DNA of 17,427 nucleotides from Gammaproteobacteria bacterium (GTDB lineage Bacteria > Pseudomonadota > Gammaproteobacteria > Eutrophobiales > Eutrophobiaceae), in assembly GCA_965215365.1 (NCBI GenBank), contig CBDCDS010000002.1, positions 1-17,427 on the forward strand, given 5' to 3'. The translations under genes and the position numbers were made by a program. The notes beneath the pieces were generated by a model. The model had not been told where the DNA came from. It made no database searches and worked only from the letters and a program-made list of their open reading frames with translations. Shown in pieces: positions 2 through 17,427 of this stretch (its first letter is position 1; each line of letters opens with the position of its first letter).

Positions 2-3000
2 AGCGAAGGCAAGAAGTACACCATTACCGTGGGCGGTCAGACGGGTGGGCTGAACGACTCCGTGCTCAAGCTGCTCGACAGCAAGGGCGGTCTGATTATG
101 GAGAACGATGATGTGATGCCGAGGAAGGGCGATTTATCCTCGAAGATAGAGTTCACGCCCGAGGCGGGCAGTGGCACGCAGACCTATTACCTGAGTGTGA
201 GTGGTTATGCGGCCAACCCGGGCGTCGTGAACACCGGCGCTTACACAGTGAAAGTGATGGAAGTGGTGGTGTTGCCGGTGGGCGCTGGGGCTGATATTAC
301 TGGCACGGACAAAGACGACAAGCTTATCGGCACCAACGGTGCTGAGAAGATTATGGGTAAGGATGGCGACGATACCTTGGACGGCATGGGCGGCGATGAC
401 ACCTTGCACGGTGGGCCTGGCAACGACCTGCTTATCGGTGGTCCGGGTGCGGATAAGTTGCAGGGGCAGGCCGGGACCGACACCATCTCCTACCAGGGCT
501 CGGCCATGGGCGTGACCATTAACCTGCGTGACGGCAGTGCCATGGGCGGCGATGCCGAGGGCGATACGCTTGGCAGCGATATTGAGAACGTGATTGGTTC
601 TGACCAGGACGACATGATTACCGGCACCGACAAAGTGTCCCCGGAAGTAGACAATCGACTGTGGGGCCTGGGCGGCATGGACCGTCTGTATGGCGGTGAA
701 GGCAATGACATGCTCTACGGCGGCCCCGGCGATGACATACTCAATGGCGGCGATGAAGACGATACACTCGAAGGCGGCCCCGGTGCCGATGAGCTGACCG
801 GCGGTCGTGGTGATGATAGAGCGTCCTATGCCAGTTCCGCCGCCGGTGTCACTGTACGCCTGCACTCCGGTCAGGCCAGGGGCGGTGATGCTGAGGGGGA
901 TACCTGGGGCAATCTGGAACCGAACGAAGTAGGTGACATGACCGAGATGGTGCCTGACATCGAGAATCTGACCGGCTCGGCTCACGCTGATGTGCTGGCC
1001 GGTGACGGCCGGAATAACGTCATCAGGGGTGGTGCCGGCGACGACCGCATCTACGGCGGTCCGGGTGGTGGTGACGACATGCTGTACGGCGATGCTGGCA
1101 ACGACCGGATCTACGGTGGCCGGGGTGATGACGAACTCTACGGTGGCCCCGGCAATGACCATCTCTGGGGCAACAGTGGTACAGATATCCTGGAAGGCGG
1201 CCCTGGCAACGATACGTATTACTTACATGCGAGCGCGGCGGGTGAAGTAGTAGATACCGTCACTGAGTCAGCCATGGCCGGTACCGACACTGTCACCTTT
1301 GCGGGTTCGCGTTTCGGGGTTACCAGCAGTTATACCCTCGGCCCTAATGTCGAGAATGTTATCGGCAGCTCGGAGAATGACACCCTCGTCGGTAATGCCT
1401 TATCGAATATCATTGAGGGCGGTGACGGTGCTGATGTGCTGACAGGTCAGTCCGACGATACCCTGTCCTACGCCAGTTCCGACCGGCGTGTGCGGGTGAA
1501 CCTCAGCGACAACTCAGCCTCCGGCGGCCACGCTGCAGGCGACACAATTTCCGGGTTTACCAACATCATGGGCTCGGCGCACGGTGATGTCATCACCGGC
1601 GACGGGAGTGTCAACACCCTGTGGGGTCTTGGCGGTGACGATACCCTAGACGGTGGTGCCGGTAACGACACCTTAGAAGGTGGCGCTGGTGCTGATGAGC
1701 TCGATGGCGGTAAGAGTGGCGCAGCGGGTGCGGCGAACACCGAAGTAAACACCCTGTCCTACGCCATGTCGAATGCGGCCGTGATGGTGAATCTGGCCAC
1801 GGCCACTGCCTCGGGCGGTCACGCCGACGGGGACGATATTGAGACCTATGAATACACCGGTCCGGAAGGTGATAAGGATGAAATAGATGTAGCCACCTTC
1901 GTCAACGTCACCGGCTCCGACCACAATGACCGCCTCACCGGCGACCGCTTCGGCAACACCCTCGCTGGCGGCAAAGGCAATGACACCTTGCGCGGTGGCG
2001 CTGGCGGTGACACCCTCAACGGTGGCCCGGGTGCTGATATGCTGGACGGCGGCGGTGCCATGGGTGACGAAGACTGGGCGGTGTACCGCGCGGCCTCGGC
2101 GGGTGTGACGGTGAACCTGAATACCAACACCGGTACGGGCGGTGAGGCCATGGGTGATACGCTCAAGAATATCGAATTAGTATGGGGTTCCAGGCAAGAC
2201 GACACGTTCATCGCCAGTGAAGGCGCCGACATCATCCACGGTGACGGCGGCAGTGATACCGTGTCCTATGCGGCATCGAAGCAGGGCGTGACCGTTGTGT
2301 TGACAGGTAACGGTAGTACAACGTTCGATGCTGACGGCCCCGACGATATCGCGGGCAATGACGATGATAATGCGTTTCTTGCAGCCACCGATGCCATTGT
2401 TGGCTATTGGCGGGCTGGTGGGAGCGATGACGGCGCTAATAGCGACAGGCCAACCCCTGTCCAGGCAGCTAGTGGTACCGTAAGAAGCTTCGCCGAAGGC
2501 GATATTCTGGCCAGCATTGAGAATGTGACCGGTTCCAGCCTCGACGATACGATTACCGGCGATGCTGTTGCCAACGTTATCCAGGGCGGTGCCGGGAAGG
2601 ACACGCTCATGGGCGGAGGCGGCGACGATACCATTCACGGTGATGCCGGCGACGATATCATTCACGGTGATGCCGGCAACGACACGCTGAAAGGCATGGC
2701 TGGTAGCGATAAAATCAGAGGCTTTGCCGGCAACGATACCATCGAAGGCGGTGCCGGTGATGATGAGCTCACGGGTGACGGTGACACAAATGATCCTGAC
2801 GGTGGCGACGGTACTGCCGGTCGTGATACCTTCGTCTTTGCGCCCGGTCATGGCAGTGATGTCATTACGGATTTTAATGCGGGTAATGACGGTGTAGGCG
2901 GCGACAGGATTGACCTGTCCGCCTTTGACCTGACTGCCGCCGCCCTCAAAGCGGTTATCATGGTGCGTGCCGGTAATACCATCATTAATCTCGAAGGTTA

Positions 3001-3175
3001 TGGGGGTGGCAGGATTACTCTTCAGGGTCTAAGTGACTTGGACCTGTTGGATATTGAAGCGAATGGTGATACTGATGAAGATAATGACATCGACACACTG
3101 AGCGAATTTAAGGACATGAATGGTGATGATGCTGGTGTCGGTGATGGTGGAACAGACGGCATCTTCATCCTCTAA
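2..3175 (+). CDS. RTX-family Ca2+-binding repeat protein (T1SS substrate, adhesin/S-layer-like), 5'-truncated, with a PPC-like domain at the window edge
   Basis: The frame is open from base 2 (SEGKKYTITVGGQ...), so the GTG at 29 is probably not the true start. Many GGxGxDxLx nonapeptides and about 7 'DTxSYxxS..GVTxNL..GGxAEGD..IENxxGS' modules. The N-terminal 'DSVLKLLDSKG...TYYLSVSGY...GAYTVKV' resembles a PPC domain. Serralysin-like tail 'GRDTFVF..GSDVITDF..DRIDLS', ending DGIFIL. Confidence 0.93.
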   Translation, partial: SEGKKYTITVGGQTGGLNDSVLKLLDSKGGLIMENDDVMPRKGDLSSKIEFTPEAGSGTQTYYLSVSGYAANPGVVNTGAYTVKVMEVVVLPVGAGADITGTDKDDKLIGTNGAEKIMGKDGDDTLDGMGGDDTLHGGPGNDLLIGGPGADKLQGQAGTDTISYQGSAMGVTINLRDGSAMGGDAEGDTLGSDIENVIGSDQDDMITGTDKVSPEVDNRLWGLGGMDRLYGGEGNDMLYGGPGDDILNGGDEDDTLEGGPGADELTGGRGDDRASYASSAAGVTVRLHSGQARGGDAEGDTWGNLEPNEVGDMTEMVPDIENLTGSAHADVLAGDGRNNVIRGGAGDDRIYGGPGGGDDMLYGDAGNDRIYGGRGDDELYGGPGNDHLWGNSGTDILEGGPGNDTYYLHASAAGEVVDTVTESAMAGTDTVTFAGSRFGVTSSYTLGPNVENVIGSSENDTLVGNALSNIIEGGDGADVLTGQSDDTLSYASSDRRVRVNLSDNSASGGHAAGDTISGFTNIMGSAHGDVITGDGSVNTLWGLGGDDTLDGGAGNDTLEGGAGADELDGGKSGAAGAANTEVNTLSYAMSNAAVMVNLATATASGGHADGDDIETYEYTGPEGDKDEIDVATFVNVTGSDHNDRLTGDRFGNTLAGGKGNDTLRGGAGGDTLNGGPGADMLDGGGAMGDEDWAVYRAASAGVTVNLNTNTGTGGEAMGDTLKNIELVWGSRQDDTFIASEGADIIHGDGGSDTVSYAASKQGVTVVLTGNGSTTFDADGPDDIAGNDDDNAFLAATDAIVGYWRAGGSDDGANSDRPTPVQAASGTVRSFAEGDILASIENVTGSSLDDTITGDAVANVIQGGAGKDTLMGGGGDDTIHGDAGDDIIHGDAGNDTLKGMAGSDKIRGFAGNDTIEGGAGDDELTGDGDTNDPDGGDGTAGRDTFVFAPGHGSDVITDFNAGNDGVGGDRIDLSAFDLTAAALKAVIMVRAGNTIINLEGYGGGRITLQGLSDLDLLDIEANGDTDEDNDIDTLSEFKDMNGDDAGVGDGGTDGIFIL

Positions 3176-3220
3176 TCCCAAGTAGTAACCCAACTTCCCG
3201 TTCACGGAAGTAAACGAACC

Positions 3221-3269
3221 CAGGGGCTACCCGGCAGCGCACGCTGCTGACGTAGCCCCTGTTTTATTT
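3221..3269 (+). terminator. Rho-independent terminator-like hairpin after the RTX gene
   Basis: CAGGGGCTAC...GTAGCCCCTG outer stem, CGGCAGCG-CA-CGCTGCTG inner stem, followed by TTTTATTT. Confidence 0.75.
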
Positions 3270-3317
3270 GTACCTCCCTGCCTTTGCCCAGCCCGAACAG
3301 CAAAACCTTCACAGCTT

Positions 3318-3333
3318 TGTGAGAAAACTCACA
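3318..3333. promoter_or_regulatory. CRP-family binding site upstream of gene A1
   Basis: TGTGA-gaaaac-TCACA, a perfect CRP core. Its centre is 26.5 bp upstream of the start of the TTGACA hexamer (class I spacing). Confidence 0.65.
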
Positions 3334-3351
3334 AAACCCAACAAAAAACCA

Positions 3352-3379
3352 TTGACAACACCCCCGGATACCCTATACT
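3352..3379 (+). promoter_or_regulatory. sigma70-type promoter of gene A1
   Basis: TTGACA (3352-3357), 16 nt, TATACT (3374-3379). SD AAGGAG at 3417-3422. Confidence 0.75.
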
Positions 3380-3429
3380 GGAAAACACGATAACCCGTTG
3401 TACCAAACCGGATACGAAGGAGACAGAAC

Positions 3430-3846
3430 ATGTCCATGGAACTCATTGCAATTATAAGCGCCACCATCGCGCTCGCCGGCCTCATTCTCAACGGCCAACG
3501 CGCCCAACGAGAAGAAACGCGCACCCTTCGCGCAGAGACACAGGCAGAATTCAAAGCCGTGCGCGCAGAGATGCAAGCCCAGCGCGCAGAGACACAGGCA
3601 CAATTCCAGGCCCAACGCGAAGAAATGCAAGCCCAACGCGCAGAGACACAGGCAGAGTTCAAGGCCCAGCGCACAGAGACACAAGCCCAATTCAAAGCCG
3701 TGCAAGAAGAATTCAAAACCACGCGAGCAGAGATAGGCGAGTTACGCGAACGCATGGCGCACTTAGAAGGCCTGGTGGGGGGACTGAGCGATGCGCTACT
3801 CAGCCGCCGCGTGGCGGAAGAGCCAGCAAAGTACGGCACCGACTGA
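3430..3846 (+). CDS. Family A coiled-coil protein A1 with hydrophobic N-terminus (138 aa; 11+7 residue repeats)
   Basis: AAGGAG SD and promoter upstream, hydrophobic LIAIISATIALAGLIL, RAETQAEFKAV/RAEMQAQ repeats, paralog at 4697. Confidence 0.85.
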   Translation: MSMELIAIISATIALAGLILNGQRAQREETRTLRAETQAEFKAVRAEMQAQRAETQAQFQAQREEMQAQRAETQAEFKAQRTETQAQFKAVQEEFKTTRAEIGELRERMAHLEGLVGGLSDALLSRRVAEEPAKYGTD

Positions 3847-3922
3847 GCCAAGCCACAGCCAACGGTTGCAGTCTGAATCCCGGCAGCAACCCAGCCTTCC
3901 CGTCCACAGAAGTAAACAAACC

Positions 3923-3970
3923 CAGCGGCTACCCGGCAGCGCATGCTGCTGACGTAGCCCCTGTTTTATT
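3923..3970 (+). terminator. Terminator-like hairpin after A1 (linker copy 2)
   Basis: Same hairpin as 3221 with one outer-stem mismatch (CAGCGGCTAC), then TTTTATT. Confidence 0.65.
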
Positions 3971-3988
3971 GCAGGGAGTGGTTTATTT

Positions 3989-4030
3989 TCCCACCGGACA
4001 CGGTAGTTCCCGCTAACCTCGGTAAGACAG
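3989..4030. repeat. REP/MITE-like palindromic element copy 1 (related to 12717-12780)
   Basis: GTAGTTCCCGCTAACC (4003-4018) is the exact reverse complement of 12745-12760. Both copies share the loop TCGG(T/C)AAGACAG. Confidence 0.6.
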
Positions 4031-4058
4031 CTGGGCGTAAAACGGGTAAGTTCTGCAG

Positions 4059-4145
4059 TTACTTCAAATTCCGGGTGGCCCTGTAGGCCATGTAACAAAA
4101 CACCAAGCCGACGCTCACCATCATAAGTGCGACAAACATATCCAT
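4059..4145 (-). CDS. Small 28-aa single-TM peptide MDMFVALMMVSVGLVFCYMAYRATRNLK
   Basis: Translated by hand (below the ORF-track cutoff). AAGAGGA SD lies in the last codons of the upstream 75-aa gene, and the ATG follows its stop after 2 nt. Hydrophobic core with a basic tail. Confidence 0.55.
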   Translation of the reverse strand: MDMFVALMMVSVGLVFCYMAYRATRNLK

Positions 4146-4147
4146 AG

Positions 4148-4375
4148 CTATTTCCTCTTTAGTTTCTTAATGAAACTTTCGGTGCTTGAACCAATAAACA
4201 CGACGAAACCTGTCGTCAGAAAGACCAACAGAGCAGCCCCGGTCACTAACCACTGTGGCGCCGAAAGATAGTTGTTTGCGAGCCAGCCACACAAACTGAT
4301 GTCCGTGACCAGCAGCACCCCAAGCCAGAGCTTATAGTAGCCGATTATTTCCTTTTCGTAGTCAAATCCCGACAT
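4148..4375 (-). CDS. Small two-TM membrane protein (75 aa), unknown function
   Basis: Two hydrophobic segments (LWLGVLLVTDISLCGWL; WLVTGAALLVFLTTGFVVFI), basic C-terminus, GGGGA SD, and an extended -10 TGtTATAGT on the minus strand at 4426-4434. Confidence 0.75.
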   Translation of the reverse strand: MSGFDYEKEIIGYYKLWLGVLLVTDISLCGWLANNYLSAPQWLVTGAALLVFLTTGFVVFIGSSTESFIKKLKRK

Positions 4376-4584
4376 TATTAAATCCCCACGTAAAGCATTA
4401 CGTACACCAAGCCGGTGACGATCAAACTATAACATCCATATTACCTGATCGACAAAACTTTTTTCGTCTTGCGAAAACGGCAGCGCCTCCCCGAGCTTCG
4501 CCCAGGTATTGCCATCCAGCCCTTACTGCGCGCAGGTTGAGGCGATATTCGCATCACTTGGTGAGATATGCGGGTTGGCAGTTT

Positions 4585-4646
4585 TGTGACAAACCCCACA
4601 AAACCCAACAAAAAACCATTGACAACACCCCCGGATACCCTATACT
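4585..4646 (+). promoter_or_regulatory. Degenerate CRP-like box plus sigma70 promoter of gene A2
   Basis: TGTGA-caaacc-CCACA (4585-4600), TTGACA 4619-4624, 16 nt, TATACT 4641-4646. Confidence 0.7.
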
Positions 4647-4696
4647 GGAAAACACGATAACCCGTTGTACCAAACCGGATACGAAGGAGACAGAAC

Positions 4697-5026
4697 ATGT
4701 CTATGGAACTCATCGCCATCATCAGCGCCGCCATCACGCTCATCGGCGCCATCATCGCCCTCGCCGGCCTCATTCTCAACGGCCAGCGCGCCCAACGCGA
4801 AGAAACGCGCACCCTTCGCGCAGAGACACAGGCAGAATTCAAAGCCGTGCGCGCAGAGATGCAAGCCCAACGCGCAGAGACACAGGCAGAATTCAAAACC
4901 ACGCGAGCAGAGATAGGCGAGTTACGCGAACGCATGGCGCACTTAGAAGGCCTGGTGGGGGGGCTGAGCGATGCGCTACTCAGCCGCCGCGTGGCGGAAG
5001 AACCGGCAAAGTACGGCACCGACTGA
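4697..5026 (+). CDS. Family A coiled-coil protein A2 (109 aa), paralog of A1
   Basis: Same SD and start. It has 7 more residues in the hydrophobic N-terminus and 36 fewer in the coil than A1, with an identical C-terminus. Confidence 0.85.
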   Translation: MSMELIAIISAAITLIGAIIALAGLILNGQRAQREETRTLRAETQAEFKAVRAEMQAQRAETQAEFKTTRAEIGELRERMAHLEGLVGGLSDALLSRRVAEEPAKYGTD

Positions 5027-5102
5027 GCCAAGCCATAACCAACGGTTACAGCCTGAATCCCGGCAGCAACCCAGCCTTCCCGTCCACAGAAGTCAACGAA
5101 CC

Positions 5103-5151
5103 CAGGGGCTACCCGGCAGCGCACGCTGCTGATGTAGCCCCTGTTTTATTT
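5103..5151 (+). terminator. Terminator-like hairpin after A2 (linker copy 3)
   Basis: CAGGGGCTAC...GTAGCCCCTG plus TTTTATTT. Confidence 0.72.
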
Positions 5152-5200
5152 GTACCTCCCTGCCCTTTGCCCAGCCCGAACAGCAAAACCTTTGCAGTTT

Positions 5201-5263
5201 TGTGAGAAAACTCACATTTTTCCGAAAAAAAACATGCAGCCCCACCCCTCAACAGGCTATAAT
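5201..5263 (+). promoter_or_regulatory. CRP box plus -10 element of gene B1 (class I CRP-dependent geometry)
   Basis: tttTGTGAgaaaacTCACAttt (core 5201-5216) and TATAAT at 5258-5263 with a poor -35. Box centre is 49.5 bp upstream of the -10 start. Confidence 0.68.
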
Positions 5264-5316
5264 CAGTTTCAGTGATCAAAACAAGGGGCCCTCACGGCTT
5301 CCGGGAGATAGTACCA

Positions 5317-5730
5317 ATGGACAAACAGACCATACACCTGATAACGCTGATCATAGCCATTGTAGGCTCCAGCACTTGGAGCCATACCAACCTGTCCGGC
5401 CGCATTGTCGCGGTGGAAAACCGGCTATCGGTCAGGATCAGTGAGGTGGAGAGTAAGCTGTCTGACAGGATCAATGAGGTGGAGAACAAGCTGTCCGCCA
5501 GGATCAATGAGGTGGAGAACAAGCTGTCTGACAGGATCAATGAAGTGGAGAAAAGACTGTCCGACCGAATTGCTGCGTTGGATGTACGCATGACAGACCT
5601 AGAGACAAGCGTGGTGAAGATTGATAAGCGCCTTGTTATTGTGGAAACCAGTCTGAAGGCCAATAACCAGTATATTGCCAGTGTTCTCGACCAACAGTTG
5701 CAACGCCTTGAAGCTCCTGGCGCGCAGTGA
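5317..5730 (+). CDS. Family B hendecad coiled-coil protein B1 (137 aa) with hydrophobic N-terminus
   Basis: ATG 5317 with GGGAG SD at 5303-5307, preferred over GTG 5272. LITLIIAIVG is followed by six LSxRIxxVExK-type 11-mers. Confidence 0.85.
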   Translation: MDKQTIHLITLIIAIVGSSTWSHTNLSGRIVAVENRLSVRISEVESKLSDRINEVENKLSARINEVENKLSDRINEVEKRLSDRIAALDVRMTDLETSVVKIDKRLVIVETSLKANNQYIASVLDQQLQRLEAPGAQ

Positions 5731-5808
5731 CAGGATTTTTCTCCTGCCTGCAAGCTGAGATCGGGATACTTCCAAGTCCAACTTCCCGTTCACGAAAGTC
5801 AACAACCC

Positions 5809-5857
5809 CAACGGCTACCCGGCAGCGCACGCTGCTGATGTAGCCCCTGTTTTATTT
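5809..5857 (+). terminator. Terminator-like hairpin after B1 (linker copy 4)
   Basis: Same hairpin with a weakened outer stem (CAACGGCTAC), then TTTTATTT. Confidence 0.6.
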
Positions 5858-5906
5858 GTACCTCCCTGCCCTTTGCCCAGCCCGAACAGCAAAACCTTTG
5901 CAGTTT

Positions 5907-5969
5907 TGTGAGAAAACTCACATTTTTCCGAAAAAAAACATGCAGCCCCACCCCTCAACAGGCTATAAT
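5907..5969 (+). promoter_or_regulatory. CRP box plus -10 element of gene B2
   Basis: Identical to 5201-5263 at offset 706. Confidence 0.68.
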
Positions 5970-6022
5970 CAGTTTCAGTGATCAAAACAAGGGGCCCTCA
6001 CGGCTTCCGGGAGATAGTACCA

Positions 6023-6469
6023 ATGGACAAACAGACCATACACCTGATAACGCTGATCATAGCCATTGTAGGCTCCAGCACTTGGAGCCATACCAACCTG
6101 TCCGGCCGCATTGTCGCGGTGGAAAACCGGCTATCGGTCAGGATCAGTGAGGTGGAGAGTAAGCTGTCTGACAGGATCAATGAGGTGGAGAACAAGCTGT
6201 CCGCCAGGATCAGTGAAGTGGAGAGCAAGCTGTCCGCTAGGATCAATGAGGTGGAGAACAAGCTGTCTGACAGGATCAATGAAGTGGAGAAAAGACTGTC
6301 CGACCGAATTGCTGCGTTGGATGTACGCATGACAGACCTAGAGACAAGCGTGGTGAAGATTGATAAGCGCCTTGTTATTGTGGAAACCAGTCTGAAGGCC
6401 AATAACCAGTATATTGCCAGTGTTCTCGACCAACAGTTGCAACGCCCTGATACCCCTGGCGCGCAGTGA
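6023..6469 (+). CDS. Family B hendecad coiled-coil protein B2 (148 aa), paralog of B1 with one extra 11-aa repeat
   Basis: Identical to B1 except for an inserted LSARISEVESK and RPDT versus RLEA near the C-terminus. Confidence 0.85.
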   Translation: MDKQTIHLITLIIAIVGSSTWSHTNLSGRIVAVENRLSVRISEVESKLSDRINEVENKLSARISEVESKLSARINEVENKLSDRINEVEKRLSDRIAALDVRMTDLETSVVKIDKRLVIVETSLKANNQYIASVLDQQLQRPDTPGAQ

Positions 6470-6482
6470 CAGGATTTTTCTT

Positions 6483-8162
6483 CTGCACGATAACTCGCCG
6501 CAACAAACGGAAGTCTGGCCCCAACTTGCAGAGCATGGCAGGCGTATGGTCAGGCTGTGTATGAAGCAGGAATTTGCGCAAGACCCGGGGCGGGCGCAGC
6601 GGTTTTCTCTGGGTTTGGAACAGCTTTTTGTCGATTTCTCCAAAAATCTGATCACTGATGAAACCCTGTCGCTGCTGCTCCGCCTGGCAGAACAGCGCGG
6701 GTTGAGTGAACGGATTGAGGCGTTGTTCTCAGGACATGAAGTCAATACCACGGAACGGCGGCCGGCGCTGCATACGTTGCTACGGGCGCCGGCAAGTCAG
6801 GGCGAGGTCTCCCCCGGACCGGCTTCCGGTCTGGCCCGGAATGCCACCCCCTCCTTGCGCAAGCAGGGAGCATCAGCGGCCGCTGACAAACTGTCCGATA
6901 TTATCCGCACAACGCGACACGAACAGGAACGGATGTTCGAGTTCGCTCGGGCCTTGCGCAACGGGGCGGTTATGGGCGCGGCGGGGAAACCCCTGTCGAA
7001 GGTCGTGAACATCGGCATCGGCGGTTCCGACCTGGGGCCGAGGTTGGTGGTTGAAGCGTTATCCGCCGGTCAGCAGAACGCTCCGGACATCGATTTCGTC
7101 GCCAACATTGACCCCGCCGATATCGAACGCGCGCTGGCACGCGCCGAGCCGGAAACAACGCTGTTTATAGTTGCCTCCAAATCCTTTACCACTACGGAAA
7201 CCCTGGTTAACGCCCGGCGCGCATGGGCCTGGCTGCACGATAACGGCTGCACCCACCCTGGCCGGCACTTCCTGGCCGTGTCGGGCAACGCCGCTGCGGT
7301 CGAGCGCTTTGGCATTGATAAGGATCGTTATTTCAGGATCGAGGACTGGACCGGCGGGCGTTATTCAATCTGGTCCTGCATCGGCATGAGTGCGGCCATC
7401 AGTATCGGGGTAGAGCGCTACCGGCAGTTCCTGGCCGGCGCGCACGCGCTGGACCGGCACTTTGCCACCGCCAAATTCGCCGACAACGTCCCCGTGCTGC
7501 TGGGATTGATCAGCATCTGGCACAACAATTTCCTCGATATCGGCGCGCACGCAATCATCCCCTACGACCAGGGCTTGGAACGGTTGCCAGCCTACCTGAG
7601 CCAGTTGGTCATGGAAAGCAATGGCAAGTCAGTCAACGCGGCCGGCGACAAGGTGGGGCTTTGCACCACTCCGGTGATCTGGGGCGGTGTCGGCAGCCCG
7701 GCTCAACATGGGGTGTTCCAGTACCTGCACCAGGGCACGCACCGGTCGTCCATCGACTTCCTGTTACCCCTGACCAGTCGCCACAATCAGGAGCAACACC
7801 AACTGCTGGTCGCCAACTGTCTGGCCCAGGGCGAGGCGCTGCTGCGGGGCAACCCCGACGCGGCCGAACCCCACCGCCGCTGCCACGGCAACCGGCCCAG
7901 CACCACCCTCCTCTACCAGCGCCTGGACCCCTACACCCTGGGCCTGCTGCTGGCGCTGTATGAACACAAAACCTTCGTCGAAGCCGCCATCTGTGGCATC
8001 AACCCCTTCGACCAATGGGGCGTAGAACTGGGCAAAACCTTGGCCGGGCAGATCGCCACCGGACTGTCGGGCGCCGCACCAGCCGGGTCACATGATTCAT
8101 CGACGGAGCAGTTGCTGGACAGGTATCGCTCCGCCCTAAGCCCTCTTTGTCGGCCTTTGTGA
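6483..8162 (+). CDS. pgi: Glucose-6-phosphate isomerase (start uncertain: CTG 6483, ATG 6546 or TTG 6414)
   Basis: Motifs DFSKN, NIGIGGSDLGP, VASKSFTTTET, GGRYSIWS, QLVMESNGK, NPFDQWGVELGK. Confidence 0.95.
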   Translation: MHDNSPQQTEVWPQLAEHGRRMVRLCMKQEFAQDPGRAQRFSLGLEQLFVDFSKNLITDETLSLLLRLAEQRGLSERIEALFSGHEVNTTERRPALHTLLRAPASQGEVSPGPASGLARNATPSLRKQGASAAADKLSDIIRTTRHEQERMFEFARALRNGAVMGAAGKPLSKVVNIGIGGSDLGPRLVVEALSAGQQNAPDIDFVANIDPADIERALARAEPETTLFIVASKSFTTTETLVNARRAWAWLHDNGCTHPGRHFLAVSGNAAAVERFGIDKDRYFRIEDWTGGRYSIWSCIGMSAAISIGVERYRQFLAGAHALDRHFATAKFADNVPVLLGLISIWHNNFLDIGAHAIIPYDQGLERLPAYLSQLVMESNGKSVNAAGDKVGLCTTPVIWGGVGSPAQHGVFQYLHQGTHRSSIDFLLPLTSRHNQEQHQLLVANCLAQGEALLRGNPDAAEPHRRCHGNRPSTTLLYQRLDPYTLGLLLALYEHKTFVEAAICGINPFDQWGVELGKTLAGQIATGLSGAAPAGSHDSSTEQLLDRYRSALSPLCRPL

Positions 8163-8768
8163 CAAATCCAGAACAGTGGATTCCCTGGACGGCGCAAGTT
8201 CAAACCCGGGTCGGGATGGCTCCATGAATGTAATAGCTTCGTAGAAATTATCCAATGCGATGAAAAGACCATTTTCCTCGGCCCATTTGCGCATGCTCTG
8301 GTTACATGAATGAGCCCATGACAGAATTTCAACCTGCCAGCCACGTTTATGCATCCTTTCTAGGGTGCTGTGGAAACCTGCTCCCTCGTAATACCCTGCT
8401 CCGTCACCGGTCAGCAGAACTACTATGCCCGGTGTGCCATTGTAGTCCAGTGCATCTTCTAACATTCTCAGTTGTAGCAAACGATCAGGTATTTCCTGCT
8501 CTCCCCTGCCGGGAATGCCCCGATCGAATAAGCGAACCTCTACCCCCATACTCTCAATACGGTTCCATAGCTGACGCATTTCAGGTGGAACAGAGCCGGC
8601 AGCCAGGGCCTTCTGCAAATGGCGATCGGCATGAGCGAGACGCAACATATTGTCGAAGTTAATGCGTACACGGTAACGGGCACCGCTTCCTTCTTCCCGT
8701 TCTTCTGCGAGACGCTGCGCCTCGTGGAAAATATTTGAGTTATCCCAATAAATGAATACGTTATCCAT
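8136..8768 (-). CDS. NYN-domain (LabA/DUF88, PIN-like fold) protein, putative RNase
   Basis: FIYWDNSNI first motif, EQEIPD, VVLLTGDG, 'RMHKRGWQVEILSW...FIALD'. The pattern of acidic residues is typical of NYN domains. Confidence 0.82.
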   Translation of the reverse strand: MDNVFIYWDNSNIFHEAQRLAEEREEGSGARYRVRINFDNMLRLAHADRHLQKALAAGSVPPEMRQLWNRIESMGVEVRLFDRGIPGRGEQEIPDRLLQLRMLEDALDYNGTPGIVVLLTGDGAGYYEGAGFHSTLERMHKRGWQVEILSWAHSCNQSMRKWAEENGLFIALDNFYEAITFMEPSRPGFELAPSRESTVLDLSQRPTKRA

Positions 8769-9005: not shown

Positions 9006-9755
9006 ATGAAAGCCATCATCCTGGCTGCCGGGCGCGGACAGCGACTTGGAGAAGCTGCGGGGGGGCGCCCTAAGTGCCTGTTGCAATACGGAGGGAAGAC
9101 TCTGCTGCAACGGCATATCGAAATCCTGGATGGCCTGGGTGTGGCACGGATTTTTGTAGTGACGGGGTACGGGCGCGACCAGATCTTCGAGACGCTGTCT
9201 GAGCTGGACTGTCGAACGCCCGTTACCACCCTGACCAACCTGAAATTTGAATGGGGCAGTGTCGTCAGCCTGTTCCAGGCCAGTGAGGCGCTCAGCGACG
9301 GCGCCGATACCATTTTGATGGATGCCGATGTGCTTTATGACCCGGCCATCCTGGAGCGGTTGTTCAGCTCGCAGGCCAGCAACTGCCTGCTGCTGGATCG
9401 GGACTTTGAACCTGGCGATGAACCGGTAAAAATCTGCGTATCCGGCGCCACACCGGTGGAATTCAGGAAACTGCCCGACCCGGCGATAAGCTGGGACTAC
9501 CAGGGTGAGTCAGTGGGTTTTTTTCGTTTCGACGCGGACATGTCGGCACGGTTGCGGCAGAAGACCAGGGAATATATTGAGCAAGACCGGGTTTATGAGC
9601 CTTATGAAGAAGTCATCCGCGACCTGCTTAGAGAGACGCCGGCGCTGTTCCACATTGAGGACATCACCGGCCTGGACTGGCTTGAGATAGATTTTCCCGA
9701 GGATATGGCCCGCGCCCTGGAACTGTTCAACGACGCAGCCGGACGCTGGCACTGA
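9006..9755 (+). CDS. LicC/PntC-like NTP transferase (phosphocholine/phosphonate cytidylyltransferase family)
   Basis: MKAIILAAGRGQRL...PKCLL, ILMDADVLYD, WLEIDFPED. Directly upstream of pepM. Confidence 0.85.
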   Translation: MKAIILAAGRGQRLGEAAGGRPKCLLQYGGKTLLQRHIEILDGLGVARIFVVTGYGRDQIFETLSELDCRTPVTTLTNLKFEWGSVVSLFQASEALSDGADTILMDADVLYDPAILERLFSSQASNCLLLDRDFEPGDEPVKICVSGATPVEFRKLPDPAISWDYQGESVGFFRFDADMSARLRQKTREYIEQDRVYEPYEEVIRDLLRETPALFHIEDITGLDWLEIDFPEDMARALELFNDAAGRWH

Positions 9756-9775
9756 CCAACCCGGCGGCGCCGACA

Positions 9776-9784
9776 TGCTATAAT
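9776..9784 (+). promoter_or_regulatory. Extended -10 promoter upstream of pepM
   Basis: Perfect TGnTATAAT (TGCTATAAT) in the intergenic gap. Confidence 0.5.
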
Positions 9785-9862
9785 GGTGCCGCTATGAGAC
9801 CCGACCCGGCACTATTTCCATTTAATTCTGGCCTGTTCAGCGTCACACAGCAACAGTAACGG

Positions 9863-11491
9863 ATGCCTGTGCCCCCCTCAAGTAAAAGTAAACAGTTACG
9901 CGGCCTGCTCGAGTCGCCCGAGCTGGAATTCATCCTCGAAGCCCATAACGGCATCTCCGCCAAGCTGGTGCAGCAGGCGGGGTTCAAGGGTATCTGGGCG
10001 AGCGGCCTGGCGCTATCAGCGCAGTTCTGCGTGCGTGACAGCAACGAGGCAAGCTGGACCCAGGTGGTGGACATGCTGGAGTTTATGGCCGATGCCACGG
10101 ACATCCCTATCCTGCTCGACGGCGACACCGGCTACGGCAACTTCAACAACATGCGGCGGCTGGTGCACAAACTCGAACAGCGCGGCATCGCCGGCGTGTG
10201 CATTGAAGACAAGCAGTTTCCCAAGACCAACAGCTTCATCGACAGCGGCAGGCAGACCTTAGCCGATATTGATGAGTTCTGCGGCAAGCTCCGGGCCGGC
10301 AAGGACAGCCAGCAGGACTCGGATTTCTGCATCGTTGCCCGGGTGGAGGCCTTGATCGCCGGCTGCGGCATGGACGAGGCCCTGCAACGGGCCTCGGCTT
10401 ATTGCGCCGCCGGCGCCGATGCTATCCTGATACACAGCCGGCAATCCCGCGCCGATGAAATCCTGACCTTTGCCGAGGCCTGGGACGGCGCCTGCCCATT
10501 GGTCATCGTCCCGACCAAATACTACAGCACACCGGTGCAGGTGTTCCGCAAAGCCGGGGTCAGCCTGGTCATCTGGGCCAACCACATGATCCGCGCCTCG
10601 GTGCGGGCTATGGAACAGGTGAGCAGGGAGGTTTTCTGCCAGGAGTCCCTCACCGGCGTGGAAGACCGCATCGCCGCTGTGGACAGCATCTTTCAGCTGC
10701 AGGGCGCCGACGAGCTGCTGCGCGCGCAGGAACGCTACCTGAACCGGGCCGGGGCAGTGCGGGCGCTGGTGCTGGCTGCAAGCCGCGGCAACAACCTGTA
10801 TGAACTGACCGAGGACCGGCCCAAGGCGATGTTGAACATTCGCGGCAAACCGCTACTGCAAAGGCTGGTGGACGAGTTTCGCAAGCGCGCCGTGAACGAC
10901 ATCACGGTGATTGCCGGCTACAAGTCGGACACACTGACCGTCGGCGGCGTCGATATATGCTTAAATACCCGCTTTGACGCCACCGGCGAATTGTACTCCC
11001 TGGCCTGCGCCCGCGACCGATTCAGTGACGACATGGTGCTCATGTACGGCGACCTGCTGTTCCGTTCCTATATCCTGCAAGACCTGCTGGAACGGGACGG
11101 CGAGCTGGTCATCGTTGTCGATTCCCTCATGGAAGAGGTGGAAATCACCGGCACGCCCGATTATGTCTGGTGCGACCGTGCTGACGATCGCTCGCTGTTC
11201 ATGCAGGAGGTGCAACTGCAACGGGTCGCTGAAGAGCAGGTCCCGGAGGATCCGCCCTGCGGACGCTGGACCGGCATGATGCGGGTCAGGTCGCAGGGGA
11301 GGCTCTGGCTGGAGCAGGCGCTAGACGAACTATCCGCCCGCCCCGACTATGAACAACTGACGCTGCCCGACCTGCTCAACCATCTGACCGGTAACGGCCG
11401 GCCGGTCACGGTACACTACATCAACGGCCACTGGCTGGATGTGAACAGCGTCAACGACATCGACCGGGCCGGCGATTTTACCTCGGATTGA
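9863..11491 (+). CDS. pepM: Phosphoenolpyruvate mutase fused to a C-terminal cytidylyltransferase-like domain (AepX type)
   Basis: PepM signature EDKxxxxxNS ([10 protein letters not shown]), [25 protein letters not shown]-terminal domain LAASRG...RPKAML...YGDLLF...WLDVN. Confidence 0.95.
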
Positions 11492-11536
11492 GGATGACTG
11501 AGCTGCGTCACCTGTGGATAAATCTGCTACGGATGT

Positions 11537-12706
11537 ATGATAAAAATGATCAACGCTGAAGCCTTCATTGAGACTGCCTGCGCGCACGGGTTTTCCCGCT
11601 ACATCGGCGTGCCTTGCTCCTACCTCACGCCGTTCATCAATTACGTCATCAACGACAAGCAGCTTACCTATATCTCCTCCGCCAATGAAGGCGACGCGGT
11701 TGCCACCGCAGCCGGTCTGACCCTGGACGGGGGACGGGCGGTGGCGATGATGCAGAACTCTGGCCTGGGTAACGCCGTGAATCCGCTGACTTCGCTGGCG
11801 CTGATGTTTGCTGTGCCGATGTTGCTCATCGTCACTCACCGCGGCAGGTTGGGGCAGGAGGATGAGCCGCAACATGCAATGATGGGCCGGATTACCGGCG
11901 GCCTGTTCGAGCTCATGGACATTCCCTGGGAGCCGTTTCCAACCCATGAACGGGACATCAAACCAGTGCTGCAACGGATCGACCGCTATTGCACCGAGCA
12001 GCAAAGACCTTATGCCTTGTTGATGGAACGCGGTGCCGTGGCGATGCATGCATTACAGGCTGAAACCATTCCGTCCGGGGTCGGTGCGCGCGGCCTGCGT
12101 AACAATGTCGCAGGGAACAGCATACAGCCCTCCAGAAACGACGCGCTCAGGGAGATCATCCGCCACACCCCTGCAGACGGGTCAATCCTGATCAGCACCA
12201 CCGGCTACACCAGCCGGGAGTTATACGCCATTGACGACCGCAGCAATCAGCTCTATGTGGTCGGCTCTATGGGGTGCGCCTCCGCCTTTGCCTTGGGCGT
12301 ATCCCTGGCCCGGCCTGACCTGCAGGTCACCGTGATAGATGGTGACGGCGCCGCGCTCATGCGTCTGGGTAACTTCACCACCATCGGCAGTTACGCGCAC
12401 AACAACCTGACGCATGTACTGCTGGATAACGGTGTGCACGAATCCACCGGGTCGCAGGCCACCGTGTCCGCAAACGTCAACTTCGCAGATATCGCCGCAG
12501 CCTGCGGCTACGGCCTGGCTCTGGACGGCGCCGATCTGGCTGTGATTAAGGAGTTGTACTCCCGCAAAGACATAACTGGACCCCGCTTTGCGCACCTGAG
12601 AATAAAACCGGGCATACCGGGCAAGCTGCCCCGCCCGGAGACATCACCGCAGGAGGTGTTACGGCGCTTGATGAAACACATTAACAAGAACGGGCATTAC
12701 AGGTGA
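11537..12706 (+). CDS. aepY: Phosphonopyruvate decarboxylase (TPP-dependent; alternative start ATG 11546)
   Basis: GVPCS, NEGDAVA, MQNSGLGN, DEPQH, GSMG and the TPP motif DGDGAALM...DNG. Follows pepM. Confidence 0.94.
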   Translation: MIKMINAEAFIETACAHGFSRYIGVPCSYLTPFINYVINDKQLTYISSANEGDAVATAAGLTLDGGRAVAMMQNSGLGNAVNPLTSLALMFAVPMLLIVTHRGRLGQEDEPQHAMMGRITGGLFELMDIPWEPFPTHERDIKPVLQRIDRYCTEQQRPYALLMERGAVAMHALQAETIPSGVGARGLRNNVAGNSIQPSRNDALREIIRHTPADGSILISTTGYTSRELYAIDDRSNQLYVVGSMGCASAFALGVSLARPDLQVTVIDGDGAALMRLGNFTTIGSYAHNNLTHVLLDNGVHESTGSQATVSANVNFADIAAACGYGLALDGADLAVIKELYSRKDITGPRFAHLRIKPGIPGKLPRPETSPQEVLRRLMKHINKNGHYR

Positions 12707-14796: not shown

Positions 14797-15765
14797 CTAT
14801 AGAAAATCCTTCCCGGCATGGTCCCTGAACAACTCCGCGTCGCGTATATATCCCATCACTGTTTCCGGGTTGGTGTGCCGGGTAATCTGCATGATCTTGT
14901 CCAGCCGCGCATTGTGCGCCGCCGCGCTGGTGACAAAACCTGCCCGCAATGAATGACCGGAGATCTCGTCCGGATTCAAACCGATCATTTTCCCATAATG
15001 CTTCAACAAGCGGGGCACATCGGCATGATGCAGGGGACGGCCGCGCACGTTGCCACTGCGCGTCACGGACTGGAATATATGTCCCCACCTGATAGCGGAG
15101 ATACGCAGCCAATCCTCCAGCCGCTTTATGGGTCTTATCGCATTCCCCTCAGGTATCGCAATGCGTTGCCCTTTCCCTTCCTGATCGGTCTTCGACCTTC
15201 TTATGTTGATAAACATTTGACGATGCTCAGCACCATTGATCGATGGAATAATCTGAATATCATCCATCGTAAGAGCGCATATTTCAGACCGTCGCAAGGC
15301 CGCCGAGAACCCAAGTGAAATAAGCGCCGCATCACGCAGGCCAATCGGGTTATCGCCGCACTGCTCCAGCATGCTCAGGATGTGATGCTCGCGCAAGGCC
15401 AGTACCCGGCGCCGGGCCGTGCCACGCATCCGCGCCAGTCCTTTCATAATCACGTCCACCTTGGGGTGAGCAGTGGGTGACAACTGGTGCGCCTCTACAA
15501 ACTTTCTGTTGATCGCACTCCGGTACAAACTCAGTGTTGAAAATGACAAGCTCTTGCCATTGATCATATTAGTCCGTGAGCCCATGATGATAAAAAAATC
15601 GGCCACGTCATCAGGCGCCGCCGCCAGTGCGTCGATACCCACATCCTTGCAATAGACCTGAAAACAGGCCCAACCCTTATCGTAGGCAATGCGAGTATTG
15701 TTCGCCAGCGCCGAAAAAAGCACGTCATCATAAAATCTGCTTTGGTTTTCAGTTGATTTCAGCAT
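14797..15765 (-). CDS. Cre-like site-specific tyrosine recombinase
   Basis: Catalytic set R (LRRSEI), K (RRSKTDQ), HxxR (GHSLRAG), H (TRHT) and Y (MGYIR). N-terminal helical core-binding region. GAGGA SD. Confidence 0.92.
   Translation of the reverse strand: MLKSTENQSRFYDDVLFSALANNTRIAYDKGWACFQVYCKDVGIDALAAAPDDVADFFIIMGSRTNMINGKSLSFSTLSLYRSAINRKFVEAHQLSPTAHPKVDVIMKGLARMRGTARRRVLALREHHILSMLEQCGDNPIGLRDAALISLGFSAALRRSEICALTMDDIQIIPSINGAEHRQMFINIRRSKTDQEGKGQRIAIPEGNAIRPIKRLEDWLRISAIRWGHIFQSVTRSGNVRGRPLHHADVPRLLKHYGKMIGLNPDEISGHSLRAGFVTSAAAHNARLDKIMQITRHTNPETVMGYIRDAELFRDHAGKDFL

Positions 15766-15968: not shown

Positions 15969-17427
<1,459 letters not shown>

Follow-up and report, generated by a model that had tools for sequence, protein, structure and literature searches.

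The window analyzed here, a stretch of 17,427 nt, comprises the whole of contig C2 (CBDCDS010000002.1) of the genome of an uncultured marine gammaproteobacterium, which spans 2.73 Mb in three contigs (C1-C3) with a G+C content of 57.9%. Between the 3' part of a gene for an RTX-repeat protein and the gene pgi, it carries a tandem array of four small genes from two families, A and B, which are preceded by copies of a repeated linker, L, and by family-specific core promoters, pA and pB (Table 1). A first-pass annotation of this stretch had described the region as an expandable, shufflable array of separately transcribed coiled-coil genes with standard joints. The gene order that it gave, RTX-L-pA-A1-L(interrupted)-pA-A2-L-pB-B1-L-pB-B2-pgi, was borne out by a repeat search and by direct reading of the sequence.

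Layout of the array and its variation between loci

The four copies of L in the window start at positions 3190, 3892 (first ~80 nt only), 5072 and 5778, share 92-94% identity over up to 144 nt and consist of two separable elements, a segment of ~80 nt (L1) and a downstream part made up of L2 and a 16-bp box. As claimed previously, the same linker lies ahead of two gene families with different core promoters, and the similarity between the A and B upstream regions ends exactly after TCACA, at positions 3333 and 5216. Past the box, the identity between A1 and A2 is 100% over 96 nt, and that between B1 and B2 is 100% over 100 nt. The copy behind A1, formerly read as a truncated L, indeed retains just an L1 segment, but it represents a full L that has been interrupted by a 610-nt insertion, beyond which a decayed box is still present. 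The B genes start with the ATG at 5317 and 6023 (MDKQ...), as in all homologs; the GTG given in the open-reading-frame list is wrong.

The insertion is 100% identical to C3:302203-302812. Its minus strand contains two open reading frames of 75 aa (4148-4375) and 28 aa (4059-4145), the latter starting just past the stop codon of the former, whose products appear hydrophobic by eye. A promoter is predicted at 4455-4426, and neither frame has a family match in Pfam, NCBIfam, PHROGs or PADLOC, where these were scanned. The 35-nt piece at the end of the insertion (4542-4576; ...TTCGCATCACTTGGTGAGATATGCGGGTT) occurs in more than 80 copies in the genome, some of them 243 nt apart, and abuts the decayed box of A2. 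A pair of ends resembling this piece is found in a sister species (locus L019, 6932-7268) at the place where the RTX gene has been lost.

Table 1. Features of the RTX-linked gene array in the window.
Feature	Position	Strand	Basis
RTX-repeat protein gene, 3' part (1057 codons), product ending in ...DGIFIL; contig starts inside	2..3175	+	Pfam HemolysinCabind, E=2.8e-84, 20 stretches
L1 after the RTX gene (small hairpin, conserved single-stranded stretch, G+C-rich hairpin, U run)	3190..3270	+	Fold z = -4.6
L2, promoter-upstream segment common to A and B units	3271..3317	+	Repeat comparison
Box TGTGAGAAAACTCACA before A1; perfect 6-4-6 palindrome, TGTGA-N6-TCACA; centre 3325.5	3318..3333	+	Sequence
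Predicted pA promoter of A1, TTGACA-16-TATACT	3352..3379	+	Consensus scan, 11/12 matches
A1, 138 aa: N-terminal hydrophobic helix, 3.5 copies of 18-residue repeat, constant C-terminus	3430..3846	+	
L1 copy after A1 (the "truncated L" of the first-pass annotation)	3892..3970	+	Repeat search, fold
610-nt insertion in place of L2, ending with 35-nt dispersed-repeat piece	3971..4580		
Decayed box TGTGACAAACCCCACA before A2, 3 mismatches	4585..4600	+	Sequence
Predicted pA promoter of A2	4619..4646	+	Consensus scan
A2, 109 aa: hydrophobic helix 7 residues longer and fewer repeats than in A1	4697..5026	+	
Full L between A2 and B1: L1 5072-5152, L2, box 5201-5216	5072..5216	+	
TATAAT of first pB; -35 unusable (TGCAGC, 2/6)	5258..5263	+	Read by eye from sequence
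B1, 137 aa: N-terminal hydrophobic segment, 4.7 copies of 11-residue repeat, constant C-terminal block DKRLVIVETSLKANNQYIA	5317..5730	+	
Full L between B1 and B2: L1, L2, box 5907-5922	5778..5922	+	
TATAAT of second pB; poor -35 (2/6)	5964..5969	+	Read from sequence; 100 nt past box identical to first pB
B2, 148 aa, one 11-residue repeat more than B1; runs into pgi upstream region without L	6023..6469	+	

When the whole genome was searched, L returned 13 matches, which lie at three RTX-linked arrays (in the window, on C1 and on C3) and at one solo pB-B gene (C3:1649109-1649593). The C1 array has the order RTX-L-A(127 aa)-L1-...-A remnant-L1-VapBC-like pair (recognized by eye)-A pseudogene, and the C3 array reads RTX-L-A(141 aa)-L1-identical 610-nt insertion-A(109 aa)-L1-...-A(163 aa)-L1, with a further A gene (109 aa). 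The linker is also present in 17 of the 22 genomes of the same genus. Within the present genome, it bounds other cassettes as well. At two loci of a sister species that are syntenic with loci of this genome, the genes differ in number, kind and order. The first of these, L019, matches the window (90.8% identity in pgi, 91.3% in the phosphoenolpyruvate (PEP) mutase gene) but has the layout RTX remnant-L-pA-A(117 aa)-35 nt-B(90 aa)-pgi, the remnant being 23 nt that match the RTX 3' end exactly and lie beside ends resembling those of miniature inverted-repeat transposable elements. The second, L014, is syntenic with the solo-B locus and contains an A-B operon, as opposed to pB-B alone in the present genome.

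In seven loci taken from records of metagenome-assembled genomes (MAGs), A and B genes are again clustered, often behind RTX genes whose products end in ...IFIL. Locus L020 has the order RTX-A-A-A-A-B, with 3' remnants of B behind two of the A genes; locus L016 includes true DUF1640 genes as well as genes for HipA and Fic. Junctions in which L1 follows the 3' untranslated region (UTR) of an A or B gene were encountered at more than one locus and in two species. Toxin-antitoxin-type genes are found among the arrays: the VapBC-like pair lies at C1:31400-32200, and HipA, with an upstream open reading frame, and Fic lie at 2953-4544 and 6713-7738 of L016.

A region of this kind might also result from the collapse or mis-joining of paralogous repeats on a short contig. 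The window does start within a repeated RTX gene and shares its terminal 826 nt (16602-17427) with C1:1-826 at 100% identity; in addition, it contains a 2-kb stretch that matches the C3 array at 92% identity, with the 610-nt block at 100%. However, B1 and B2 have different tails and are one repeat apart in length, and comparable arrays exist on complete single-contig genomes of sister species. Moreover, public sequencing runs of three studies yielded contigs that each contain part of the array junctions with 0-2 differences, covering RTX to L, L1 through the insertion to pA, L2/box through pB to B1, the B1 3' end to L, L through pB to B2, and B2 to pgi. In total, 17 runs were listed, none recorded as RNA, of which four, all consisting of short contigs, were compared with the window; one of them may be the source sample, and "joints" seen in such contigs (e.g. 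3878 to 5778) can stem from paralogous arrays. We therefore regard an assembly artifact as highly improbable. Given the terminal overlap, C2 and C1 probably join, which would place their arrays roughly 45 kb apart in opposite orientation.

The A and B protein families and their relatives

Judged by sequence comparison, A and B are unrelated, uncurated families that are restricted to one genus among the genomes searched; homology between them was considered and rejected (hhalign probability 1.7%). The homologs identified, 533 for A and 142 for B, are nearly all metagenome proteins, and the few that are annotated come from gammaproteobacterial MAGs, where they are called "hypothetical protein". 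Of the 22 same-genus genomes, 21 contain family A and 7 contain B, and neither occurs in 18 other genomes; the scan of 399 further genomes of the class (one of them unscored) yielded a single weak coil-only match. Neither family gives a match above the cut-off in Pfam or NCBIfam. PHROGs returned only weak matches to families of unknown function, PADLOC only coiled-coil noise, and a sequence search of the PDB only weak coiled-coil matches (best E = 5e-4 for B and 2e-3 for A). Viral contigs, scanned twice, contained no relatives of either family. The nearest clusters in the ESM Atlas are unnamed, and those with names (scores of 0.80-0.87) are leads only. No description of these families or of the arrays turned up in searches of an open-access library.

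The two families share the hydrophobic N-terminus and the variable length attributed to them earlier. A hydrophobic segment spans residues 4-21 in A and 5-21 in B, within constant N-terminal sequences (MSMELIAII... and MDKQTIHLITLI..., respectively). It is followed by a variable number of central repeats, with units of 18 residues (54 nt) in A and 11 residues (33 nt) in B, and by a constant C-terminal block. The lengths of the homologs that were read and aligned differ by whole blocks of 7, 11 or 18 residues. The constant blocks are under purifying selection. The C-terminus of A differs from four sister-species copies by 10-13 synonymous and 3-4 non-synonymous changes in 30 codons, and the C-terminal block of B shows 53 synonymous versus 17 non-synonymous changes over 9 x 24 codons (anchored on DKRL). 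The AlphaFold2 model of B2 consists of a single helix comprising residues 3-140 (mean predicted local distance difference test score of 92.5). The 11/7-periodic coiled coil that had been proposed for both families is apparent in B, with a hydrophobic period of 3.60-3.61 that was reached by 1 of 500 and 0 of 500 shuffles; in A, the Kyte-Doolittle periodicity is not significant (reached by 154 and 193 of 500 shuffles) despite clear 18-residue repeats.

Insertion into the membrane is predicted from the hydrophobic segments, and any oligomeric state of the helices would likewise be a matter of prediction. According to the positive-inside rule, the positively charged flank of a membrane helix faces the cytoplasm. 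In A, there are no lysine or arginine residues before the hydrophobic helix and four after it, and its most likely topology is therefore N-out/C-in, with the long helix in the cytoplasm. The topology of B appears ambiguous.

These features bear on the idea that A and B form periplasm-spanning stalks of graded length that work together with the secreted RTX protein, for instance by spacing or anchoring a surface layer. In line with this notion, arrays follow one RTX subfamily at all three loci of the present genome and at four of six long loci of other species, with a fifth (L019) containing the RTX remnant only; the window includes an ABC gene for type I secretion; B is modeled as a single helix of ~20 nm with a narrow hydrophobic stripe; and lengths vary in repeat steps. 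However, envelope stalks are not supported for A, whose charge distribution predicts a cytoplasmic helix, and the tail-anchored DUF1640 proteins encoded in another species' arrays would also face the cytoplasm. Furthermore, a terminator is predicted between the RTX gene and the array, and one sister species (G005) retains 11 RTX genes followed by L1, yet hardly any A and no B at all. Only 7 of the 22 species have B, so the RTX proteins can do without the A/B genes. The tie between the arrays and the RTX protein is one of adjacency only, any cooperation between the two would be conjectural, and we consider the stalk model unlikely.

A third family, C, combines an N-terminal module common to A (hhalign probability 98%) and the C-terminal tail of A with a different core, and one locus (L018) encodes two proteins that join an A-type front to a C-type back. 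Some A and C genes (L017 1766-1945; L018 9242-9420 and 9918-10100) have a common leader of ~130 nt between promoter and start codon, with two G+C-rich hairpins recognizable by eye. This leader may be a regulatory 5' UTR; the genes in the window are devoid of it.

DUF1640/CCDC90 proteins had been named as candidates for comparison with A and B. The two families are not members of this group: A1, A2, B1 and B2 have no PF07798 match at E <= 1, and hhalign comparisons with the three DUF1640 proteins of L016, a small reference set, gave probabilities of 4.2% for A and 2.1% for B. Of 18 A homologs, three give weak matches to PF07798 at E <= 0.01 (best 2.9e-6), and the family is absent among the 25 families listed for 17 B sequences. 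The true DUF1640 genes of L016 (48.8 and 55.4 bits versus a cut-off of 33.5) are located directly behind B or C genes, and their products, which end in ...AQGGLVVALIKLL, vary in the number of an 11-residue repeat.

A predicted terminator and a putative CRP-type operator in the linker

The first element of the linker, L1, is predicted to be an intrinsic terminator that is common to one RTX subfamily and the A/B genes. Its predicted fold (z = -4.6) consists of a small hairpin and a strong, G+C-rich one, separated by an unpaired stretch, with UGUUUUAUUU after the latter hairpin. An alignment of 35 copies, from the present genome and nine sister-species genomes, revealed compensatory changes in 4 of 12 pairs of the inner stem, whereas the outer stem, the U run and TGTTTTATTT are invariant. 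L1 thus combines a stable G+C-rich hairpin, a U run and compensatory change, as would be expected of such a terminator. In the sister species G005, which has only two A-family matches and no B, all 11 copies are situated ~15-25 nt past open frames ending in ...G(I/V)F(I/M)(L/I/V), whose C-terminal ~90 residues resemble those of the RTX protein in the window. The present genome contains 22 open reading frames with at least four GGxGxD motifs, and L1 follows all three members of one subfamily and none of the 19 others; all three precede A arrays. Given this distribution in the two genomes, L1 appears to be primarily the terminator of an RTX subfamily.

In agreement with the proposal that the units are transcribed separately, each gene has its own predicted promoter, and a fold scan predicts a terminator after every array gene but B2, downstream of which no terminator-like fold was detected (z = 0.25). 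The consensus promoter scan called pA twice. The box upstream of these promoters has half-sites that match the E. coli CRP consensus. Its centers (3325.5 and 5208.5) lie about 60.5-62.5 nt before the transcription starts predicted from the -10 elements (ending at 3379 and 5263), the distance being ~60-61 nt at A1 and ~61.5 nt at B1. With these starts, the TGTGA-N6-TCACA palindrome would be at about -61.5, the class I position, and the spacing between box and ATG is maintained in other species.

The exact 16-mer occurs seven times in the genome, each time ahead of A or B genes, and TGTGA-N6-TCACA of any kind is found at 9 sites versus ~1.7 expected from composition. Among relatives, the 16-mer was detected in 17 of the 22 same-genus genomes and in none of the 18 others, and its reversed control in 0 of 41. 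A candidate for the cognate regulator is the only protein of the genome above the cut-off for HTH_Crp_2 (45.4 bits), which comprises 244 aa, has a cNMP-binding domain and a helix with the sequence ...HREAVSRE..., and is encoded next to a cyclase-related gene. Its orthologs (E <= 1e-20) are present in 21 of the 22 same-genus genomes and in 0 of the 18 others. The distance between the 3' end of the regulator gene and an exact box is 56 nt in G003, 112 nt in G009 (at two identical contig ends) and 283 nt in G017, which represent three species. Thus, box, regulator and family A appear confined to one genus among the genomes searched. The shared range of box and regulator is suggestive, with the qualification that kin are non-independent; binding of the box by this protein and the ensuing activation are predicted.

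In other species, the box also lies ahead of genes whose products begin, as judged from their N-termini by eye, like acetolactate synthase, DnaN, isocitrate lyase, a TonB-type receptor and Uma2-type proteins, and it is often extended to a 28-bp palindrome, CAAAAATGTGAG-AAAA-CTCACATTTTTG. At loci L034-L053 (G004, G009, G018 and G020), it is embedded in a longer conserved context (...AAGAAAAAAATCAGCAAAAA-box-TTTTTG.GAAAA...) ahead of diverse housekeeping genes. Several copies in other species have ~150 nt of common flank, and a repeat element may explain part of their spread. Boxes with one mismatch (TGTGGGAAAACTCACA) are also found in the present genome at C3:1145466, 1146837 and 1148186, with a pB-like continuation, ~180 nt ahead of three tandem Uma2-type genes.

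Origin of the array and comparison with known systems

The array is modular and variable, as its description as expandable and shufflable implied, but L is not a special joint, because its two elements also occur apart: L1 follows array-free RTX genes (11 of 11 copies in G005), and the box precedes unrelated genes elsewhere. We considered whether L might instead be the site of a dedicated, integron-like recombinase that inserts, excises and reorders self-contained cassettes. Highly similar repeats of ~144 nt between small open reading frames, as in chromosomal integron arrays, interleaved toxin-antitoxin-type genes, copy number and order that vary between species, and a tyrosine recombinase gene in the window (14797-15765) would all fit such a system. 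However, this gene lies ~8 kb away behind housekeeping genes and not near the other arrays, is single-copy save for a 56-residue fragment elsewhere, and scores below the integron-integrase cut-offs (best NCBIfam matches of 37-46 bits versus 220-335); no integron integrase adjoins the array, and no recombinase is found at the arrays. Inspection by eye revealed neither attC-like R''/R' core sites nor an RYYYAAC...GTTRRRY pair in L, whose hairpin corresponds to a G+C-rich terminator stem with a U run. Whereas integron cassettes are mostly promoterless and served by a common promoter, each cassette here has a promoter of its own (pA found twice, pB with its own TATAAT and box), with predicted terminators between units. 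In addition, the halves of L occur independently elsewhere, and the junctions between L1 and the A and B 3' UTRs are common to loci and species, as inherited duplication junctions would be. A dedicated cassette system thus seems very unlikely. Because the same junctions recur across loci and species and nothing points to a dedicated recombinase, the "standard joint" is best seen as a by-product of duplication.

Collectively, these results suggest that the region is probably a lineage-specific multigene array that grew out of units composed of L1, L2 with its CRP-type operator, a core promoter and a small gene, shaped by nothing more than ordinary duplication, deletion and homologous recombination. 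All junctions can be accounted for by tandem duplication of units with one or more genes, starting at the RTX terminator, by segmental duplication along with RTX genes, by deletions, and by homologous exchange between near-identical copies of L, promoters and gene ends. Protein length would change through the gain or loss of in-frame repeats of 18 residues in A and 11 residues in B. Each product would form one long helix (~80-170 residues) that carries a hydrophobic membrane segment at its N-terminus and the constant block at its C-terminus. L1 would stop transcription arriving from the RTX gene or the preceding unit, and a genus-specific CRP-family regulator would bind the box near -61.5 and activate transcription. 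Its action would be essential at pB, which has no -35 element, and modulating at pA, which is close to consensus. It is tempting to speculate that the arrays encode a set of helical scaffolds or spacers that are tethered to the membrane and produced, in a regulated manner, under the condition that the cyclic-nucleotide regulator signals.

Several observations weigh against this interpretation. Transcript starts, stops and regulation are predictions from sequence, and the consensus scan did not call pB, in which TATAAT is seen by eye without a -35 partner. The best NCBIfam match of the regulator is CRP, but at 53 bits it falls far below the 266-bit cut-off, and the "RE..R" in its helix is what we presume to be a CRP-type recognition motif. 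The non-significant periodicity of A makes the designation "coiled coil" weak for this family, and the N-terminus of B, instead of serving as an anchor, could act as a signal peptide that is cleaved off (most homologs have GSNA|W). The 17.4-kb contig begins inside a repeated gene, and no read or contig compared spans the whole array. Finally, the identity between L1 and its sister-species copies (95-99%) exceeds that of the neighboring coding DNA (82-97%), and the unpaired stretch ahead of the terminator hairpin, CACGGAAGTAAACGA, is almost invariant. A plain terminator does not account for this excess conservation.

L1 could be a functional 3'-UTR RNA element. An Rfam search of positions 3000-6700 produced nothing near a gathering score. 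In an extended scenario, RTX genes, L1 and arrays would function as a single module peculiar to the genus. Length-graded membrane-tethered helices (of the A, B, C and DUF1640 types, whose N- and C-terminal modules are exchangeable) would be turned on by a CRP-like regulator that senses cyclic nucleotides and would act with type I-secreted RTX proteins, and L1, as a 3'-derived small RNA or a signal for stability or localization, would couple both. We consider this scenario quite unlikely.

Beyond the array, the window contains a phosphonate-type gene cluster (9006-12706). Its products are an NTP transferase, a 542-aa protein in which a PEP mutase is joined to a second nucleotidyltransferase domain, and a thiamine pyrophosphate-dependent enzyme resembling phosphonopyruvate decarboxylase. 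An NYN-domain gene (8136-8768, minus strand) shows 97% DNA identity with the sister species, while its neighbors have lower values (90.8% for pgi, 86.5% for the next gene). The tyrosine recombinase gene, also on the minus strand, is flanked by dxs and the type I secretion ABC gene; its product matches Phage_integrase with 63.6 bits, and the genome contains no second full copy.

Our findings bear on no long-standing open question. They do, however, add two uncurated small-protein families, as well as a third, C, with the N-terminal module of A, which among the genomes searched occur only in one genus of uncultured, apparently sponge-associated gammaproteobacteria, at up to a dozen or more copies per genome. 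The array also provides a natural example of a terminator and a regulator-bearing promoter segment that travel with duplicating genes, with an outcome that resembles an engineered cassette array. Moreover, a lineage-specific CRP-like regulator whose operator can be read from genomes makes regulon prediction testable in unculturable organisms.

Among known systems, chromosomal integrons offer one comparison. Their repeats, such as those of Vibrio, separate small cassette open reading frames. As in these arrays, there are many small frames of unknown function, repeats of ~120-140 nt that are >90% alike, interspersed toxin-antitoxin genes and a content that differs among relatives. By contrast, the present arrays have no adjacent integron integrase and no visible attC core sites, their repeat is a terminator plus promoter region, and their cassettes are self-promoted.

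At the protein level, A and B share a single N-terminal membrane helix followed by a coiled-coil-prone helix with PspB, YhcB/ZapG, FtsB/FtsL and the phage Mu releasin (DUF2730). Weak, sub-threshold matches to DUF2730 (E = 9e-4) were obtained, and "Mu-like releasin" is among the nearest named ESM Atlas clusters, with scores of 0.80-0.84 that are leads only. However, those proteins are single-copy and show no repeat-number variation, and A and B match none of them at family cut-off. Nor was a phage context found for A and B, given the absence of relatives in the two viral-contig scans. The Bdr proteins of Borrelia have a helical design and are anchored in the membrane by a C-terminal segment, whereas the hydrophobic segment of A and B is N-terminal. 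Bdr genes are located on plasmids and prophages, the A and B genes on the chromosome behind RTX genes. Bdr repeat number is described as differing between strains, with copies being reassorted by homologous recombination (PMC3303823). Bdr resembles A and B as a lineage-restricted, multi-copy group of small proteins of unknown function with variable internal repeats, a likeness of design only. DUF1640/CCDC90-like proteins are small prokaryotic membrane proteins with a coiled-coil stalk (PMC4786415). They differ from A and B in that their hydrophobic segment is C-terminal and their N-terminus forms a globular head.

The promoters, in turn, are reminiscent of class I CRP-dependent promoters of E. 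coli. Promoters of this (lac) type carry TGTGA-N6-TCACA centered near -61.5. Similarly, the present arrays combine such a site ~61.5 nt before the predicted start with a weak core promoter (pB, without a -35 element) and a CRP-family regulator with a cNMP-binding domain. In contrast to the E. coli system, the regulator is a distant, genus-restricted relative of CRP, the spacer and its orientation are also conserved, and the exact site is found in this genome only before A and B genes.

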